A DNA stretch of 62,632 bases, the filler included, from Basidiobolus ranarum (taxonomy: Eukaryota), in the NCBI GenBank assembly GCA_040143965.1. It is 25 parts of 25 records of this genome, joined end to end, with 100 filler letters (N's around TTAATTAATTAA, not from the genome) between each part and the next. Parts side by side here need not be neighbours in the genome. Positions count along the whole stretch, not along the records: positions 60,234 to 62,632 come from JASJQH010003381.1; 24 more parts are not named here. One strand, 5' to 3'. The notes under the pieces were generated by a model. That model ran no database searches. It was not told where the DNA came from and saw nothing but the letters and a program-made list of their open reading frames with translations. Below, in pieces: positions 7,671 through 62,632 of this stretch. Made by a program: the position numbers and the translations under genes. Positions within the stretch are counted from its first letter, which is position 1. Each line of letters starts with the position of its first letter.

Positions 7671-9976
7671 GAGATACTTAATCTGTGTGCATGGCTTGGG
7701 CTTTGTTGCTGTTATTGCACTCAAACAATGCAAAAACCCATGAGAATTTTGAAAAGAGCCCTTTGTTGGAAGGTTAATATACTCTGGAGTCTTCTTAACC
7801 CATCGCATTATATCCAACACTAATTTTGCTGATACATTGTTAATTGGATTAGCATATGGTAATACTGATGGTTTCACACAGAACATCATTTCACTGAAGG
7901 TGTGCTTCATTGGTCACTCCTAGAATGTGTGACCAGGTCCTATAACTCTAAGCATTGTGAAAGATGCAGCAGGGAATGTGTTGAAAACCAGCATAGATTC
8001 AGTCTATCTTCTTTAAACCTGTAAAAAAGTTTTTATATCCAATTAAAAATCGTCTCACAGTTGCTCTATTGGCCTGAGATCTGCCAATGTGAGTTGATGT
8101 TGTAAGAATATATTAACAATATCAACAAACAACTCCCAATGTTGCCAATACTTAATGGGCTAAAATCTTTTCAAGACTTCACTTGAATATATACAAATTG
8201 AATACTTCCAGTCTTTGCATTTAAATAAACACCTAGATGAGTGGATATTGATGGGAGTCCTGGTAAAATATGATGATATCTTTGCTTTTTCAATCATTTT
8301 CCAAATCAACTCAAACTTTGATTGTATCTCAAATGGCTCATCCATATTGAATTTTCCACTATATAGTGGAGAAAGTAGTATTGGAATGTTTTTGACTAGT
8401 AAGTGCATAGTGCCTAATGGGAAGCTCTGGCTTGAGCTGATCCCCTTTGGCAATATAATTTTAGGCTTATGGCTAATACCAAGTTTGATGTTAGACCAAC
8501 TATTTGGTGAATTGATATCAGTTATCATGTTGAAATCTGGCTGTGCTCTTGATGGTAAAATCATGGAGCTTAGTGTTGTATTTGGATAGTAGTAATGTGT
8601 AGGCCTGATAGAGTAACCTCCTTTCATTTGACAAAATTTACAGCAAGATAGTGTATTGTGCCTGCAAGAACCTCTAAGTTTACTGATGGCAGGAGTGTCA
8701 CCAATACATACAATGATATTAGCTTTCATAGAATATTCACCCATCTGAACCCCATTGGATAACTGTTCTAACTCCACAATCAAAGGCTCCAAGTAGGTAT
8801 CTACAAGCACTTGTGATTTAGGTCCAGATATGATGGATAGTATCAAAATATTATGACTCTTGTACCATTCAGAAGGAGGAAGATTTAAGTTGATTAAAAT
8901 TATTGGCCATCAAGCCTTTCCAATGGTATATTTGTTTAGTAAGAAACCATCCAGAGCCAATGCAAATGCATGATCATATGTGTTCCCAAAGAAATCTTGA
9001 CTTCTCAAATTCTGGTAGTGATATCTGTCAAGTATATTGGTATTATGATTAGCTTTACAGTGAGTACTTTGGTATTGGATCAATGATTTACATTTAGGTG
9101 ATTTTATCAAAATTTTATGATGGGGAATCAACAGTGTGTAAGCCAAATATGAACTATATTTAACTGATTCAGTGAGTGCCAATTGGGTGCTAACAGTACA
9201 TGACTTCAGGTTTTTCAGATCATACGTTAAAGCCTAACAACCATTTTGGACATGAAGGTAGTTTAATTACTGAAGGATTAAAAGTCATACAATTGATAAG
9301 TGTTTTCCTATTGTACCAAGTCTGTGGCAAGCAATAGTTGCCAATCAACTGTGGTAAAAGTGTAAGAAAATCAATAAATATTTGGTTTCTAAGATTGGAT
9401 TGAACTCTCAACTCCTCAATAATCAAAGCTGCTTCCTTTACAGTAAGTGTTACCAGTGGACTAGTGTTTGCCAATAACACAGAGTCCCTAACAAAACCAT
9501 ATTCTTCTTCTTCAACTTCTGATATACTACCATTGGTACTGGAATAACCAAGGTCAACATGTAGCAGCAAGTCCTCAAAGTTGTCTGGACTTACTGGGTT
9601 GACCAAAGATGCACTTCTACCCACATCATTCTGGTCATATAATTGTGGTAACTTCATGGTATTTTGACTTTCGGCAGTGTTAGCAAAGCTTAGAGGCAAA
9701 GTACAATCAGTGGACTCAATGGGCAAAACCAAAATCAATTTAGTACACATATTACTGTTATAATACACCAGGCTTTGTACAGCTGGTGGCTTTGTAAAGT
9801 GACCATGCTTGTGATGATTTTTTTCATGAAGCCCCCAGCTTTAATAGCACAAGAATTTGTGACAATAATAACAGGGCTACTTAAAATATTTGTGAGGCGG
9901 CATAAGAAAGATATTGTTGAAAAAAATACACCACATATGTAAGGGTGGATTTGTAGGTATAGCCCATCAATATCAC
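7671..9976 (-). mobile_element. CMC/EnSpm (CACTA-like) transposase pseudogene
   Basis: NLPPSE.YK..NILILSIISGPK...DTYLEPLIVEL..L..GV...IGDTPAISKL.G..H....CKFC (Transposase_21-like); LPSCP; H.LLHL...GP....E.PM. Confidence 0.88.
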
Positions 9977-11517: not shown

Positions 11518-12491
11518 ATGACTACAGAAAGAAATGTCTTTTCCGATGTTTCACAAAAAGCAAAGAATGTTTTGTTTAAGGCCTTGCCTATTGCAAGCTG
11601 GCTTCCATATTACAACAAGAAGTGGCTTTTTGGTGACGCTCTTGCCGGCATTACTGTTGGTGTGATGGTGGTCCCTCAGGTAAGTAATACACTCGAATGT
11701 TCAATTCAAAACTTTGAGGTTAACCGGTTCTATTTCCTCAGGTACTGGCATATGCTCAAGTGGTTGGCCTTCCTGTTCAATATGGTCTTTACAGTGCTAC
11801 GTTTTGCGCCATGGTTTACTGTCTTTTCGGGACATCCAAAGACGTCAATGTTGGACCTATTACCATGCTTTCCATGCTGACTGGCCAAGTATGCAGTCAG
11901 ATGGTTGAGGAGTATGGCTATAGTAATGTTGATGTAGCTATTGCTCTGACTTTTATGACCGGCATCATTTTGTTAGCGTTGGGAATTTTGAGACTGGGCA
12001 TTGTTCTAGATTTCATCTCAGTGCCAGTTATTGTTGGATTTACCTCTGGCGCTGGTATTGCCATTATGACAACTCAGGTGTGTAAACAGATGTCTACTTT
12101 TTAGTGAAATAGTCTCATCTAATTTTCCATATCTTATCCAATGTAGATTCCTAATTTCATCGGTTTGAAAGGGATTAATACTCGGGAGTCTGCCATTAAG
12201 ATTGTTATTAACGTTTTTAAGCATATCGGAAATGCCACTTGGGTAGACGTTGTAATTGGAGTCAGCTCTATCCTCGTTCTCGTAAGTCTTGACCAGATCA
12301 AAAGGCGTTATGGTCGCAGACATTTCGCCATTGGATTCTTGGGGATTGCTAAGAATGCAATCACTATCATCATATTTACATTGGTCAGTTTCATCATCTT
12401 GAAGACCGCCCCAGACACCAAAATCAGCATCATCCGTGATGTCCCCCGTGGTATTGCACCTCCGCGTTTCCCCAACATTGATTTGACCATG
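11518..12491 (+). CDS. SulP/SLC26 sulfate permease, 5' part (exons 11518-11679, 11742-12077, 12147->contig end)
   Basis: LPIASWLPYY..KWLFGDALAGITVGVMVVPQ|VLAYAQVVGLPVQYGLYS...FGTSKDVNVGP...GILRLGIVLDFISVPVIVGFTSGA. GT-AG introns at 11680-11741 and 12078-12146 keep the frame. Confidence 0.95.
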
Positions 12492-25155: not shown

Positions 25156-27566
25156 ATTTCTTCACCTCACCACCCTGTCATCCTTGGTATCTCAAGGCTG
25201 ATGCAGCACAATCCAGTAATAAACTGGAAGAAGAAGATTATCATGTTCAAGCAAGCTGCACCTCCTAGTCCTATTTGCCTACCTACAAAGCATCCAACTC
25301 ACCATCAGCCCAATCCTCAAAGATCTATGAAGCCAATATCCATTGACAGTGTTGCTGAAGAGCTGAAACCAACAGAAACTATGGTTCATATGCTCCTACC
25401 CAACTATTTAGCCTCTGATGATGTCTCTGACCAGAAGAAATTTGTTATACTCTCAGCTCACTGCCCTTATGATTGCCCTATAGATCTACAAGAAGGAAGA
25501 CAACCACCATTTGGGCCTATCTACGGGCTGGCCTAGCCACAACTCAACATTCTGAAAATGTGTATTGCAGAAAATTTGGAGAAAGGGTTTATTCAACATT
25601 CAAAGTCTCCAGTAGGCTCTCCAATCTTATATGTTAAGAAAAAGGATGGATCTATCCATCTCTGTGTTAATTATTGAGGCCTCAATAGAATTACAGTCAA
25701 AAATTGGTTCCCCTTACCATTAATAAATTCACTCTTGGATCAGCTTGCTTCAGCCAAGATATTTACAAAGATTGATTTAAGAGGTGCTTACAATCTTGTA
25801 AAAGTCAAAGCAAGAGATAAATGGAAAACTGCCTTTCAAACTTGCTATGGACACTTTGAATGCAATGTCATGCCATTTGGACTTACCAATGTCCCTGCAG
25901 TCTTTAAGCACATGATTAATGATATCTTCAGAGAGTATCTTGACCAGTTTGTAGTAATCTACCTGGAAGATATGTTGGTCTTCTCAAGCTCTCAAGAAGT
26001 ACATAATATTCATGTTTTGAAGTCCTAGAAAACTTGAAAACCTCTGGTCTTGATGCTAAACTTGAGACATGTAAGTTTGACCAAGCTCAAGTTGAATTCC
26101 TTGGAAATAACATTTGCCCATCAGGCTTCTCCATGGACCCTAAGAAGGTTGTGTCTGTTTGGTCTTGGGATATTGCTAAGAGTGTGAGGGATGTCCAATC
26201 CTTCCTGGTATTTGCAAACTTTAACCAATGGTTTGTTAAGATTTACTCCAAAATAGCTGCTGCATTAACAAACCTTACCAAGAAAGAAGTCCTATTTGAC
26301 TGGAACTCATCTTGCCAACACACATTTGTAAGTTTAAAGAATGCTTTTGTCTCAACACCAATCCTGGCACACCCCAAGCTAGACAAGCCATTTATTGTTG
26401 AAACAGATGCATCCAACTTTGCTCTAGGAGCAGTACTATCACAGTAAGGTGGTGACAACTTACTGCACCCTGTTGCCTTTTACTCAAGAGAGTTCTCTGC
26501 TTCAGAAATCAACTATGACATCTATGACAAGGAATTATTAGTAATTATTGGTGCAGTTGAACAATGGCAACAATACTTGGATGGTGAAAATCACACAATC
26601 ACAATCTATTGTGAACATAAGAATCTTCAGTATTTTAGTACAATCAAAGTTCTCAACTGCTGTCAAGCAAGATGGTCATTATTTCTTGCCATTTTTGATA
26701 TTATGATTACATGTCAACCAGGTAGCCTGCAGGGAAAACCTGATGCCTTATCATGTAGAGCTGAATATCAGGCTAAAGAAGGGGATGAGGCTGCAGGCCA
26801 ACAAAATACTTCCTTGCTGAAGCCCCACCAACTTCAAATTAGGACAACTGCTCTTTCTCTGCCCAGTAGAAGCATATTTCAAGAAGACATCTGCAAACTT
26901 TGGTATGAAGACCCATTGGTAATATCAATCAAGAAAACCAGGATACACCCAAAGGTCTCTCAAGCTTGGACTTGTACCCCCATTTCTCTATCATCCATGA
27001 TCTCTTGCTTTAAAGGAGCACCCTTACATTCCAGACCACACTTCCAGACTCAAAATCATGCTGGAAAGACATGACTCACCACTTGCAGGATACTGTGGTA
27101 TTGCTAAATCTTATATGTTGGCATCCAGGGATTATTGGTGGCCATAAATGTTTGCATTTGTCAAGACTTATGTTTCCACCTGTGATGCTTGTGCTTGAGT
27201 GAAGACACCAATATGTTAGCCCTATGGCCTCCTACTCCCACTTCCTATTCCTGATCAGCTGTGGGAATCCATGTCCCTCTATTTCATAACTGATCTACCC
27301 TTGTCTGTTAAATATGATTCAATTCTAGTAATTGTTGACCATCTAACAAATATGGCCCACTTTGTGCCCTGTAACAAGTCAATTGATGCAAAACAAACAG
27401 CAGAATTGGTAACTCAAAATATTTTCTGCCTTCACAAACTCCCTAAAACTATCATCTCTGACCAAGGACCTCAGTTTGCTGCCAAATTTTGTAAAGTCTT
27501 CTCCAAACCTTGAGGGTCTCTGGCAATCTCTCCACTGCTTTCCCTCGCCAATGTGATGGCCAAACA
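25156..27566 (+). mobile_element. Ty3/gypsy (Tf1/Tf2-like) pol pseudogene: RT, RNase H, integrase
   Basis: [38 protein letters not shown] (decayed YLDD); ETDASNFALGAVLSQ; NYDIYDKELL; SLYFITDLP; IISDQGPQF. RT-RH-IN order. Confidence 0.95.
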
Positions 27567-30176: not shown

Positions 30177-30503
30177 AAGAAGTCCAAAATCAACGTTGAA
30201 TACATTCACATCTCTGCTCTTCTTGGTTTCGTCGAATCAACTTTGATTTGGGCCGTCACTACCCTGAAGCTCGAGAGAGAACATGAACTAAGAGTTATCT
30301 TAGCATTCAACAAGGTTCTTTGGTTACAAAATGATTTCTTTGCAAAGTACTATGCTAAGGATGGCTCTGATGTACCCAACTCTTTTGGCTTACACGCTCA
30401 TCCAATCAAATCTTCTAAATTTAACCTCGACAGTGCTATGATTGGTGGCGCCATGGCTGTTGTTATAGTATTGCTTGTGCAAAAATTTTTAGCTTTGTAT
30501 TGA
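30177..30503 (+). CDS. Fungal protoglobin-domain protein, C-terminal part with hydrophobic tail
   Basis: Frame open from the contig start: INVEYIHISALLGFVE...AFNKVLWLQNDFFAKYY, a motif I recognise from fungal protoglobin-family proteins. C-terminus AMIGGAMAVVIVLLVQKFLALY. Confidence 0.75.
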   Translation, partial: KKSKINVEYIHISALLGFVESTLIWAVTTLKLEREHELRVILAFNKVLWLQNDFFAKYYAKDGSDVPNSFGLHAHPIKSSKFNLDSAMIGGAMAVVIVLLVQKFLALY

Positions 30504-58578: not shown

Positions 58579-60133
58579 TTAAATCAAAGCTAGAGTGGAA
58601 CAGCTCCGATCAAGTAGAACATCTCTTCTTGAAGAAGATATAGTGATCATACTACTGTGAAGCTTGTCAGACAAGTTTGGCAATCTCATAATTGCATTAG
58701 TACAAAGATCAGAGCCATTTACAATGGAATATATTGATGTCAGGGTTTTGAATGAGCAATCAAAGAGATCCGATATTTGGCATATTAATTTGATTCAGAC
58801 ATTTTTTAAAGTTTTAAAACATTCATCAGGCTGCTGTAATTTAATTTAGATTGGGAAGCTTCCCAGCATATGGCAAACCACAAAGATTGGAATTCCAGCT
58901 TAGAACCAATTTAAACAATGAAATTTAAGTTAGGATAATACTATACACTAAATGCAGGATTGTAAGAGCACAGATTTGCTCAATCTAGTTTTACTCCAGC
59001 TACACCTGTTGCAAAACTGGATGAAAAACTCTATGTACCAAACATGGCTCACAATCTGCTATCAGCAAGCCAAATAACAGCTCAGGGACTCTAACTTATG
59101 TTCCACAAGGCTGGATACACCAATTATGCTCTAAATAGCATTGTATATAGTACATAGATCAAAACTCATAGCTAGTGTAGGCAGAAAATCCACAAAATGT
59201 ATTCCAAGTATTCTAACCTGGCTACAGCTGGGTTAACAAGCCGTCAGATGTGACATAGAAGATTACGCAACATTGAGGAACAAAAAATGATCCAAATGAT
59301 GTAAAATTAGTTTGTCTCAGGCTCAAAAATAGGAAATTTGACAACATTGAATATATATGAAGGGTGAATATATGGAAAACTTCACAGACAGCCATTTTCA
59401 AGCCCTCAGGATGTCACATCCACTCAAAGTTTATATTGATTTATTCTGTCAAATTTGGGCCTTTATTATACATCTTACTGGGAGGCCACAGGTACCTTAT
59501 GGCCATTATTGACATAACAAGATACACTTGCTTGTTCTTTTTCAAATGAAATTTAAAGCCTCAGCATGTTTCAAGAACTACAAAGCAATAGCAGAGCAAG
59601 AATCAACATAAACACTCAGGGCTATAAGGTGTCTTGATGGTTGTTAATAATGATCATACACTTTGTAAGTTTTTGTTTTGAAATGGAATTAAGCAACCAA
59701 CTACGGTACCTGATACTCCACCACAAAATGGAGTTGTAAAATTTGCTAATATAAATGTAAGGGAGAAGGCAATGTCTATTATACATGATCAAAAGTTAGA
59801 TTACAACAAGCAGGTTGAATCTGTCTCCATCACAGTCATGATCAAAAACAGATGCCCAACAAGAGTGCTACAAGTTATAGCTCCATTTGAAGCCCTGTAT
59901 AGATCAAAACAAATTTTAGAACATCTGTGGATCTTCATAGTTCTATATATTGGCTCATTTGAGCTCAAAAATGCTCTGAATAGAGATGCAGAAGCTGTAA
60001 TAGTGTATTTTTAGGCTACTATGATGATTCTAAGGCCAGCACACTGTTTTAAATCAAAAATCAGTAGTTAACATGTGTGGAGTTGGGATAATTGATCAAA
60101 AAGCTAACTATTCAGCTCAAGTTACAGTTCTTG
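58579..60133 (+). mobile_element. Heavily decayed copia gag-protease-integrase (family B-like)
   Basis: SDKFGNLIIAL..RSE..TMEY as at 19318; LYVPNMAHNLLS; TVPDTPPQNGV; KNRCPT. Confidence 0.85.
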
Positions 60134-60484
60134 NNNNNNNNNNNNNNNNNNNNNNNNNNNNNNNNNNNNNNNNNNNNTTAATTAATTAANNNNNNNNNNN
60201 NNNNNNNNNNNNNNNNNNNNNNNNNNNNNNNNNCGTCCATATTAAGTTTTGAAAAAGTATGTTTAGCTTGAAGGACAGCACAAATGCGATCAACAGATAG
60301 TTTGAAATTGCGCTCAGCTTGGGAAGGAGCAGTAGCGGCATCAGTATCAGTATCAACAACGCCTGTGACAACAATGTCGGCAGTATTATATTCTTCATTA
60401 GCAACCGACTCTACTTCAGTAAGACCTTCCAGATGCCGAACTCCAGCATTTAACTCCAAAGGAATCTAAGTATATGAGCAAGTT

Positions 60485-61345
60485 TTAGGATTTGTCGAAG
60501 CATCCGAAAGTGTCTTCCGTTTCAATTGCTCGCTGGTTTTTTGTGTATCGAAAAACAGACTTATTTTGAGGAGTACTCGTTTCATGCATACAATATAAAA
60601 GATCACTACGAACAGGATTGATAACCACACACTTATCTATAGTCTTAAGGATTTCATCTTTTGACAACTCTTCAATACAAGGAACACCATCATCAACAGC
60701 CTTCATTTTCCGGCGACTGCTTAAAGCGCCTCTTCTGGCAGTGCTGAAGTTTTGTTTGAGTATAGACATACCGACTCCATCTGTTTCAATGGTCCCTTCA
60801 AACTTCATTGTCTTGGCATTTTGACTTTTGAGAGCTTTACAGTTTAGATTAACAACACTACCCTAAATATCAACCTTGTTTCCAGTGAAATTCTTGTTCT
60901 TCAATATATGATAGTTCAAGGTCTTAGTATCTACAGTTATACAAGAAGGGATAAAGCCTTTTCGCAGTGGGAAGCAGTTAGACAATTTCATATTATTATC
61001 TTCACATATTTTCGTGAGCATAAAAAATGGGCATAAATGCTGCTGCAGGTTTGCTTTGGATTTGATGCACAGCCATGTCGTCCAAGAAATTTGCTGGGGC
61101 AGTTGGTACAGTTCTTGAAGATATTTCTGCTTTAATCTTATCACAAACATCAAGTATATTGGCTTTGACTGAAGTTTTTATTTCCTCTTCTGAGCAGCTG
61201 TTGTTTTTCATATCTTGAGTCAGCTTCTTGATCTTTTCTTTTTTTTCTTAGAACCTTGTTTATAAACATTCTGAAATGATTTCCAAAGTGAAGTGCTATA
61301 TTATTAATGTAGGCAGTATGAAGCTTGGTGCTTTCATAAATTGCT
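60485..61345 (-). pseudogene. Fanzor1-like (eukaryotic TnpB-derived) nuclease remnant
   Basis: AIYESTKLHTAYINNI..HFGNHFRMFIN...CFPLRKGFIPSCITVDTKTLNYHILK...DI*GSVVNLNCKALK...MKFEGTIETDGVGMSILKQN...CIEEL...KCVVINPVRSDLLYCMHETST...FRYT. This matches my recollection of Mucoromycota-type Fanzor1 (FPLR, TDGV, RuvC-I IDPGR.DL). Confidence 0.75.
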
Positions 61346-61367
61346 ACAACAAAACTGAAATAAAAGA

Positions 61368-61850
61368 TCAGGCACCAAAGACTTGAGCCCAGTAGTGTCT
61401 ATTGGCAACATAACCAGATCCAAAAGAGGTGAATTGAGAATTGAGAATGTTTCGTCGATGTCCAGCAGAATTCATCCAACCTTCCATGACAGCCTCGATA
61501 CTAGAATACCCCTGAGCTACGTTTTCCCGATAGATCTCCATTTGAAACCAGTTTCAGTAACACGGGTACTCAAAGGTCTTCCAAGTTCGTCGTGGGTCAT
61601 TTTGTCTACACGAGCTTGATAATCAGTATGCTTTTGAGCTGCTTGTACCAAACGATTGTCCAGTTTAAGTGGTTTAACTCCATTTTGTTGACGTTGCTGG
61701 TTAACGAGAGTGAGCATTTTTGTGAAGATCCCTGTTGCCTGATGGGGATGTTTTCACTTTCCTTTGATGTCTATTAATATAACTGACATCTTGGGAACCC
61801 GCAATAACTAAGGTTAGGGGAATAGGAATAATTGCATAAAGAGAGCACAT
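61368..61850 (-). pseudogene. Secreted CAP/SCP-domain protein (bacterial YkwD-like type) with two frameshifts
   Basis: Signal-like MCSLYAIIPIPLTLVIAG; MLTLVNQQRQQNGVKPLKLDNRLVQAAQKH..MTH; after a frameshift ENVAQGY.....VMEGWMNSAGHRRNILN...YWAQVFGA*. Confidence 0.85.
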
Positions 61851-62632
61851 GTGAACCAGATATCGGAATACATACAAATGAGTTCTATAACGAAACAATT
61901 CGTTCTATGCACTAAGTAGTTTGTGTATAATTTATAACGCTAAGAAATGCCCAAACACGTAGGGATCAGTGAGAGTAAGGAATGAGCCAAAAAAGACTTA
62001 GACTAAGAGAGTTAATTCACATAGAGCTTAAACCTTATTTCAAAGGACTGACTCATCAGTTTTTGTTATTAAACCCTATATGGGACTCCTACGGTTAGGG
62101 TTAGGTAAATATGGTACTGATGGATGATCACTGTATTCAAAATCCGAACTCAATATGGACGAGAAAGACGAGATCACTAAGTAGATGAGGTAGTACACCT
62201 AAGTTTCTCATGGTCGGGTGTGGCTTGACCTATTACCCATAGTATGTGTGCAAAGAATCGTATGAAGCTATAAATAAGGTGTTGGCTTTTCATTCTATTC
62301 TCAAGTTACAATCATTTGACATTGAAGTTGTAAATGTCCCAAATCTTCCGTCCAGAAAGCGAGAAAAATGCTCGCTCAATCACTATAACAACCAAGGATG
62401 GTTCTGTGAATCATGTTACTTCATTGAATCGTATTATTGCATTTATTCAATGGCATTACGGCACTACCACTAATAACAGAACTCCAGAACAGATCGAGAA
62501 AGAACGTTATCTTTACGGGGATATCGCCTTCAACCGTTGGTTACCGATGTCAGCCGCGGTGCAAATTCAATTATGCTGTGGTTCACTATATGCATGGAGT
62601 GCATTTAACAGCTTGATTGATTTGCATGTAAG

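Follow-up and report, generated by a model that had tools for sequence, protein, structure and literature searches.

We analysed a window of 62,632 bases of DNA from Basidiobolus ranarum, made up of 25 contigs (2399-2421 bp, in descending order) and 24 identical linkers, and found that positions 60235-61359 on its minus strand are, with little doubt, a pseudogene fragment of a Fanzor1 gene of the type described from Parasitella parasitica (PpFz1, PDB 9cf0). The contig that carries the fragment is the last of the 25 (60234-62632, 2399 bp). Four minus-strand frame pieces, covering 61359-60515, were queried separately and unaltered with phmmer against 177,635 PDB sequences, and proved to be collinear with PpFz1. 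The reference used was chain 9cf0_P of PDB 9cf0, a maltose-binding protein fusion, and positions in PpFz1 are given in the numbering of this chain. Residues 14-62 of frame 61150-61398 matched 9cf0_P 627-675 (E = 1.2e-7), residues 2-64 of frame 61002-61247 matched 665-725 (E = 1.8e-6), residues 42-96 of frame 60863-61177 matched 748-802 (E = 4.2e-11), and residues 1-112 of the 125-aa piece in frame 60485-60862 matched 814-925 (E = 1e-26). This last piece also matched Spizellomyces punctatus Fanzor1 (SpuFz1, 8gkh_P) with an E value of 3.2e-9, and the remaining PDB matches listed, with E values of 0.25-1.2, were judged to be due to chance. The matches of the frames to Fanzor1 are far beyond chance. 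An initial annotation of this DNA, which had read a Fanzor1-like nuclease from a series of motifs on the minus strand, was borne out in this respect, as the motifs occur in the order that it gave, with TAYINNIALHFGN in 61150-61398, CFPLRKGFIPSCITVDT in 60863-61177, and both FEGTIETDGVGMSI and KCVVINPVRSDLLYC in 60485-60862, and the stitched frames share homology with PpFz1 and SpuFz1, two Fanzor1 nucleases that have been characterised experimentally and whose structures are solved.

A much larger protein set gave the same picture. The 230-aa read-through of the frames, with X written at an in-frame TAG, had 495 matches at E<=1e-3 among 1.84 billion proteins, 168 of them at E<=1e-10, and the best (1.4e-65) was to a protein designated here P0002. 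When the 150 listed representative relatives (P0002-P0151), which include full-length proteins, were compared to the window using tblastn, all 197 high-scoring segment pairs (HSPs) with E<=1e-3 fell within 60000-61500, and no Fanzor piece was detected on the other 24 contigs. At the DNA level, blastn of the relic-bearing contig against the whole window returned the self-match alone, with no similarity to the other 24 contigs.

We mapped the lesions in the relic using tblastn of close relatives, along with column counts in a 77-row alignment (non-gap rows). Homology begins at approximately 61359, since alignments of P0018, P0010, P0008 and P0007 extended to 61344-61359 and not beyond; compared with PpFz1, roughly 250 residues at the N-terminus are gone. 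The first piece of the relic (61234-61359, ending in VVAIYESTKLHTAYINNIALHFGNHFRMFINKVLRKK) lies within the open reading frame (ORF) 61150-61398, N-terminal to the WED and RuvC parts, and probably derives from the REC lobe. It is separated from the second piece (61053-61244, KKEKIKKLTQDMKNNSCSEEEIK to PANFLDDMAVHQIQS, 86% identical to P0030 over 64 aa) by a shift from frame -2 to frame -3 in an A-rich run at 61234-61244, where the HSPs of P0030 overlap (61269-61234 in frame -2 and 61244-61053 in frame -3). A deletion of approximately 21 codons follows, with a change from frame -3 to frame -1 at 61053-61057, and the HSPs on the two sides meet at 61053/61057, leaving no DNA in between. At this site P0030 carries NSLDVYPDIYKLAKGSVYYDV, P0002 has a similar stretch between its HQIQ and KAN/KPQQHL motifs, and PpFz1 chain 726-747 is without a counterpart in the relic. 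The third piece (60866-61057, KANLQQHL to NCFPLRKGFIPSCITVDTKTLNYHILKNKNFTGNKVDI) is 75% identical to P0030 and 84% identical to P0004, and ends at an in-frame TAG at 60863-60865. This codon aligns with a tryptophan that is present in 72 of 75 homologue rows (VDIW in P0002, P0030 and P0004), and thus a change of TGG to TAG holds. The frameshifts, the stop codon at 60863 and the internal deletion proposed in the initial annotation were all recovered from the comparison to homologues, the deletion being the stretch of about 21 residues which is present in P0030 and P0002 and lacking in the window copy.

The fourth piece (60515-60862) holds the C-terminal part of the WED domain, with FEGTIETDGVGMSI, and the first RuvC segment, up to FRYTKNQRAIETE. 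In SpuFz1 it corresponds to chain 700-806, or residues of about 306-412 as counted from D383 being chain position 777, a span that takes in K312, R315, R317 and Y345 of the WED domain and D383 and R407 of RuvC, all singled out by Saito et al. (2023). The RuvC-I motif in the relic is INPVR (60608-60622), which aligns with MDPGR in PpFz1 and IDPNK in SpuFz1, in agreement with the proposal that it is a decayed IDPGR. Its asparagine (AAT, 60617-60619) stands in the column of SpuFz1 D383, as counted from the alignment, in which 70 of 71 homologue rows have the catalytic aspartate, and its valine (GTT, 60611-60613) is found where the homologues have glycine (48/72) or asparagine (22/72). D383 is, along with N385, E541 and D606, one of the Mg2+-coordinating residues of SpuFz1 (Saito et al., 2023, PMC10432273). 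The presence of asparagine in the column of the catalytic aspartate indicates that this DNA is a relic of Fanzor1 by descent, and not a functional member of the family.

Beyond the RuvC-I motif, the frame of the fourth piece continues past RAIET to IETEDTFGCFDKS and ends at a TAA at 60485-60487. The second deletion junction is found here (60466-60520), where approximately 55 nt in the relic face about 59 residues in P0002 and PpFz1, so that approximately 40-45 codons have been lost; neither P0002 256-314 nor PpFz1 chain 926-985 has a counterpart. The same region contains, in addition to the TAA, a change of frame and a TAG at 60466-60468. The earlier statement that the ORF breaks off after RAIET needs correction, as homology restarts in another frame at 60465 and runs to 60235. 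This fifth piece (60235-60465, IPLELNAGVRHLEGLTEV to KLSVDRICAVLQAKHTFSKLNMD) represents the variable segment between RuvC-I and RuvC-II and reaches the end of the contig. In tblastn alignments it was 70% identical to P0076 63-142 and 79% identical to P0004 127-150, and its match to P0002 391-428 was weak (pairwise E value of 4e-4) in a region where P0002 itself does not align with PpFz1; residues from 60241-60465 gave no match in the PDB at E<=10. Because homology continues up to the last base before the linker, with the contig ending at 60234, RuvC-II, RuvC-III, the zinc finger and the omegaRNA are unobserved rather than proven deleted, and the conclusion of the initial annotation that they are missing since the ORF ends does not follow. 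The contig breaks inside the element, and the 3' half (RuvC-II/III, zinc finger, omegaRNA and transposon end) was not assembled alongside.

In all, three stops (TAG 60863-60865, TAA 60485-60487 and TAG 60466-60468) interrupt the open frame, which is further disrupted by a frameshift and two deletions. One of these deletions removed the part of RuvC that comes after the first catalytic motif. The window copy has no function, because the catalytic aspartate is gone, the frame is broken repeatedly and two segments are deleted, and it is probably no more than a common kind of transposon remnant, from a family already known. Judging from its homology to PpFz1 and SpuFz1, the ancestor would have been an omegaRNA-guided double-stranded-DNA endonuclease, dependent on a target-adjacent motif (TAM), with a single RuvC site (D-E-D/N), and carried on a DNA transposon. 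This mechanism is established for PpFz1 (Cell 2024, PMC11423790) and for SpuFz1 (PMC10432273). Compared with such an ancestor, the window copy lacks the N-terminal part, carries at least three stops and one frameshift, has two internal deletions and shows asparagine for aspartate at RuvC-I.

The sites that are not seen in the relic can be followed in its long relatives. P0002 (591 aa), the best of these, is 60% identical to the window copy and matched PpFz1 with an E value of 3.8e-107, and P0010 (732 aa) aligned with PpFz1 from end to end (chain 566-1254, 5.6e-197). P0010 carries IDPN, GDW, NEFNTSSKCPDCE and NRDM, with D, E and D falling on D383, E541 and D606 of SpuFz1, and has CPDC where the zinc-finger region begins. 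The RuvC-II glutamate (E541 in DEYKTSS of SpuFz1) is found in NEYKTSS in P0002 and in NEFNTSS in P0010, and the RuvC-III aspartate (D606 in WNRDM of SpuFz1) lies in NRDM in P0010; both sites would lie beyond the contig end in the relic. A GDW motif with a downstream glutamate is the 'rearranged' RuvC-II site of Fanzors (Jiang et al., 2023). An absence of RuvC similarity, or full-length homologues devoid of the RuvC triad, were the outcomes that the initial annotation had named as speaking against a Fanzor. Both were looked for; similarity to RuvC was found, and since P0010 aligns end to end with PpFz1 and keeps D, E and D, the triad is present in a full-length homologue.

The suggestion that a Fanzor family exists in this lineage is supported by six annotated paralogues in B. 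ranarum, P0004, P0005, P0014, P0030, P0076 and P0154 (92-213 aa), which share 68-89% identity with the window copy where they align locally and are encoded on six different contigs of 6.2-23 kb. Counting the window copy, there are at least seven fragmentary Fanzor1 copies in B. ranarum, and no intact Fanzor was present among the six named paralogues, all of which are of 213 aa or less. The damage differs from one paralogue to another: P0030 keeps the 21 codons lost from the window copy, P0076 has IDPGR and P0014 has IDPGC, and P0154 has an internal gap of its own. The C-terminus of P0014 shows the same post-deletion sequence, KSRHFDKS, as the window copy, and the gene models of P0076 and P0004 skip the same short region of the second deletion. 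This shared junction suggests that the deletion of 40-45 codons predates the duplication of the copies, and, judging from the protein models, a deleted derivative was probably copied, or the segment duplicated, before the window copy underwent further decay of its own. A precomputed Pfam label, PF26935.1, is attached to P0004, P0005 and P0154, and the Pfam run performed here was silent for P0004 and for the window pieces; the label may stand for a more recent model of this Fanzor1 region.

Several observations weigh against an assignment to a decayed Fanzor1 gene, or complicate it. Pfam searches with seven frame pieces gave no family above the cut-off for the Fanzor pieces. The Pfam set that was used is without a model for this part of Fanzor1, and the full-length relatives score below threshold with TNB (PF07282), the TNB/NUC domain being the one that holds the CCCC zinc finger of Fanzor1; a match to EFP_N (E value of 0.005; 17.3 bits with a cut-off of 23) was judged to be due to chance. 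A 20-nt core of two PpFz1 omegaRNAs (Saito et al., 2023, supplement) had no match in the window with up to 3 mismatches. Neither transposon ends nor a transposase were found on the contig, whose 3' side stops at 60234. The frameshift at 61234-61244 may be a slip of 1 bp, and for this lesion alone a sequencing error may be responsible.

The possible sequencing error raises the question of whether the gene could be intact in the organism, with all of its breaks arising from errors of sequencing or assembly on a 2.4-kb contig of low quality. Tiny contigs such as this one are numerous, one lesion lies in a homopolymer-rich run of A residues (61234-61244), and the adjoining gene for a CAP-domain protein likewise has a single frameshift. 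Errors of this kind do not, however, account for a clean TAG at a conserved tryptophan, for the changes of aspartate to asparagine and of glycine to valine at RuvC-I, for the deletions of 21 and of 40-45 codons or for the absent 5' part, and P0014 has the same post-deletion junction. We therefore regard an intact gene as scarcely credible. More plausible, though still improbable, is a non-autonomous deleted element which retains a working omegaRNA and a transposon end on the unassembled 3' side and could be served in trans by an intact Fanzor elsewhere in the genome. The deletion of 40-45 codons is shared with at least one other copy, the contig stops within the element, as happens when an assembler meets a repeat, and 'ghost' loci with an omegaRNA and no protein have been described for SpuFz1 (Saito et al., 2023, PMC10432273). 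Against such an element stand the size of the six named paralogues, among which no intact Fanzor was seen that could serve it, and the lack of any omegaRNA-like match, as the negative result with the PpFz1 core was accompanied by an Rfam search of 60234-62632 that gave 0 matches at E<=1. Repeats on the contig were limited to one 18-nt direct pair (78%) and four inverted pairs of 14-16 nt, which were at chance level, with none sensibly flanking the relic. With no transposon ends, transposase or omegaRNA found, the link of the relic to a mobile element is by homology alone.

Taxonomy was examined for 30 representatives, 17 of which were named themselves and 2 through members of their clusters; five of those named were from B. 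ranarum. All named relatives from outside Basidiobolus were Mucorales, and included Rhizopus microsporus, R. stolonifer, R. arrhizus, R. azygosporus and R. delemar, as well as Parasitella, Helicostylum, Thamnidium, Pilaira, Mucor mucedo and Cokeromyces. A quick, unrooted IQ-TREE tree was computed from 77 rows and 187 columns. From 176 locally matched proteins, 84 spanned positions 55-205 of the query and 72 were used, with non-spanning matches and 12 near-duplicates (90% clusters) excluded; the 77 rows were completed with the window row and 4 partial paralogues from B. ranarum. Five rows are from B. ranarum, and these clustered with P0002 and two rows from R. microsporus (97 in the Shimodaira-Hasegawa-like approximate likelihood ratio test, SH-aLRT), and this group was nested in a clade of 35 rows (SH-aLRT 95) in which the 19 other named rows were all Mucorales. 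Protein identity was 50-60%, about as high as that between Mucorales Fanzors.

This nesting could mean that the family has moved between the two groups of fungi. We do not claim horizontal transfer, as an approximately unbiased (AU) test, in which the 19 Mucorales rows were constrained to form a group apart from B. ranarum and the outer rows, left a Mucorales-only clade standing (p = 0.20, log-likelihood difference 15.2), and the constrained group was chosen after the tree had been seen. Given this p value, the missing root, the outer rows without taxon names and the choice of the group post hoc, a transfer between Mucorales and Basidiobolus can be called possible and nothing stronger. The wider proposal, that B. 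ranarum harbours a multi-copy family of the PpFz1 type which was exchanged horizontally with Mucorales, and of which an intact, active copy with its omegaRNA may lie in the unassembled or unannotated part of the genome, appears to us doubtful.

A gene containing a CAP/PR-1 domain, which is not part of the relic, lies directly upstream on the same strand (61368-61753, minus strand). It is read in two frames, with a frameshift near 61517-61553, and both matched PF00188 (8.4e-10 for 61368-61553, profile positions 59-114; 2e-7 for 61517-61753, profile positions 1-57). Its stop codon, at 61368-61370, is at most 10 nt before the start of Fanzor homology. This arrangement could suggest exaptation of the relic, or of the family of short copies, either as a truncated, nuclease-dead protein derived from the REC and WED parts or as a regulatory RNA, for example in the 3' end of the CAP transcript, the more so as annotators have given gene models to six paralogues and the relic is not depleted in CpG, unlike the retroelement contigs of the window. 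The longest open frame is, however, of only 125 aa and without a conserved start, and the interruptions differ from those of the paralogues, P0030 keeping the 21 codons and P0076 a DPGR motif, which resembles independent neutral decay. Exaptation is therefore very unlikely in our view, and a functionless pseudogene fragment is the better description of the sequence downstream of the CAP gene. On the plus strand of the same contig, an ORF at 62334-62630 was considered as the N-terminus of a transporter; Pfam gave no match and it is not claimed.

The observed/expected ratio of CpG was 0.50 for 60485-61345 (14 CpGs) and 0.57 for 60234-61359. The initial annotation had remarked that the relic keeps some CpGs in contrast to high-copy elements, and this agrees with ratios of 0.13 or less in 14 of the 25 contigs. 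Across the window the distribution of CpG was bimodal, with ratios of 0.02-0.13 in these 14 contigs, 0.56-0.83 in nine and 0.24-0.29 in two. The depleted contigs were numbers 1-4, 7, 8, 10-12, 15-17, 22 and 24 (for example 1-2421 and 25156-27566). TpG/CpA was in excess in them (1.27-1.45), and their Pfam matches, where there were any, were to fragments of copia, gypsy or Transposase_21. This pattern fits repeats that have decayed through methylation-linked loss of CpG.

The linkers between contigs are artificial, each consisting of N44, TTAATTAATTAA and N44, and separate unrelated contigs (60134-60233 and, for example, 2422-2521), so that any gene neighbourhood spanning a linker, such as that at 60134-60233, is also artificial. 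Gene fragments on other contigs included a Transposase_21 (CACTA/EnSpm-type) at 8160-8909 on the minus strand (2.2e-15), a sulfate permease fragment at 11724-12104 on the plus strand (1e-35) and a protoglobin domain at 30177-30503 on the plus strand (4.9e-10). The whole of contig 18 (42717-45121, plus strand) is spanned by an 801-aa frame of a nonribosomal peptide synthetase (NRPS), with condensation, adenylation and methyltransferase domains, which contains a stretch 100% identical to B. ranarum K7432_017132 (684 aa; 85% query coverage). The next matches listed did not exceed 52% identity; those with a name were mostly bacterial, many of them cyanobacterial. Reports of bacterial-like NRPS genes exist for Basidiobolus.

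The window copy belongs to the same family as PpFz1 (PDB 9cf0-9cf3; Cell 2024, PMC11423790) and has its parts in the same order. Unlike PpFz1, it is a pseudogene that has lost its N-terminal part and whose 3' half is unassembled, and its host is Basidiobolus and not a member of the Mucorales. The place of the acidic and variable fifth piece is occupied in PpFz1 by the FRI domain, a cyclophilin-binding insertion in RuvC, and no similarity between the two was detectable. The FRI domain is reported in that paper from Parasitella and Rhizopus only (PMC11423790). SpuFz1 (8gkh; Saito et al., Nature 2023, PMC10432273) is much more distant, with homology in the C-terminal part of WED and in RuvC-I. 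S. punctatus is likewise rich in partial copies, 19 of its 42 loci being full-length (PMC10432273), and the SpuFz1 loci have defined inverted repeats of 30 nt and an omegaRNA, none of which is visible on the relic-bearing contig. TnpB (of IS200/IS605 and IS607) and Cas12 represent the ancestral superfamily, with the arrangement WED-REC-RuvC-zinc finger and guidance by omegaRNA (Saito et al., 2023, PMC10432273; Jiang et al., 2023). The window pieces had no direct sequence match to TnpB or Cas12 in the Pfam and PDB searches, and in contrast to these proteins the nearest relatives of the relic have the rearranged RuvC-II glutamate of the Fanzor type (GDW followed by NEFNTSS in P0010).

In the literature searched, no paper mentioned 'Fanzor' and 'Basidiobolus' together, and Basidiobolus is absent from the supplementary tables of Saito et al. 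(2023) and Yoon et al. (2023), both of which list Parasitella and Rhizopus; a stray mention elsewhere is possible. Taken alone, the relic is of small significance, being a dead fragment from a family that has been studied in depth, and coming from a fungal group whose richness in Fanzor1 is already on record. It contributes one record, and has modest value in drawing attention to a Fanzor family of a lineage outside the catalogues that were compared. An intact copy in Basidiobolus, should there be one, would provide one more nuclease of the PpFz1 type, possibly with a different TAM, and if it is true that the family moved between Mucorales and Basidiobolus, this would represent the transfer of a transposon between distant fungal phyla.

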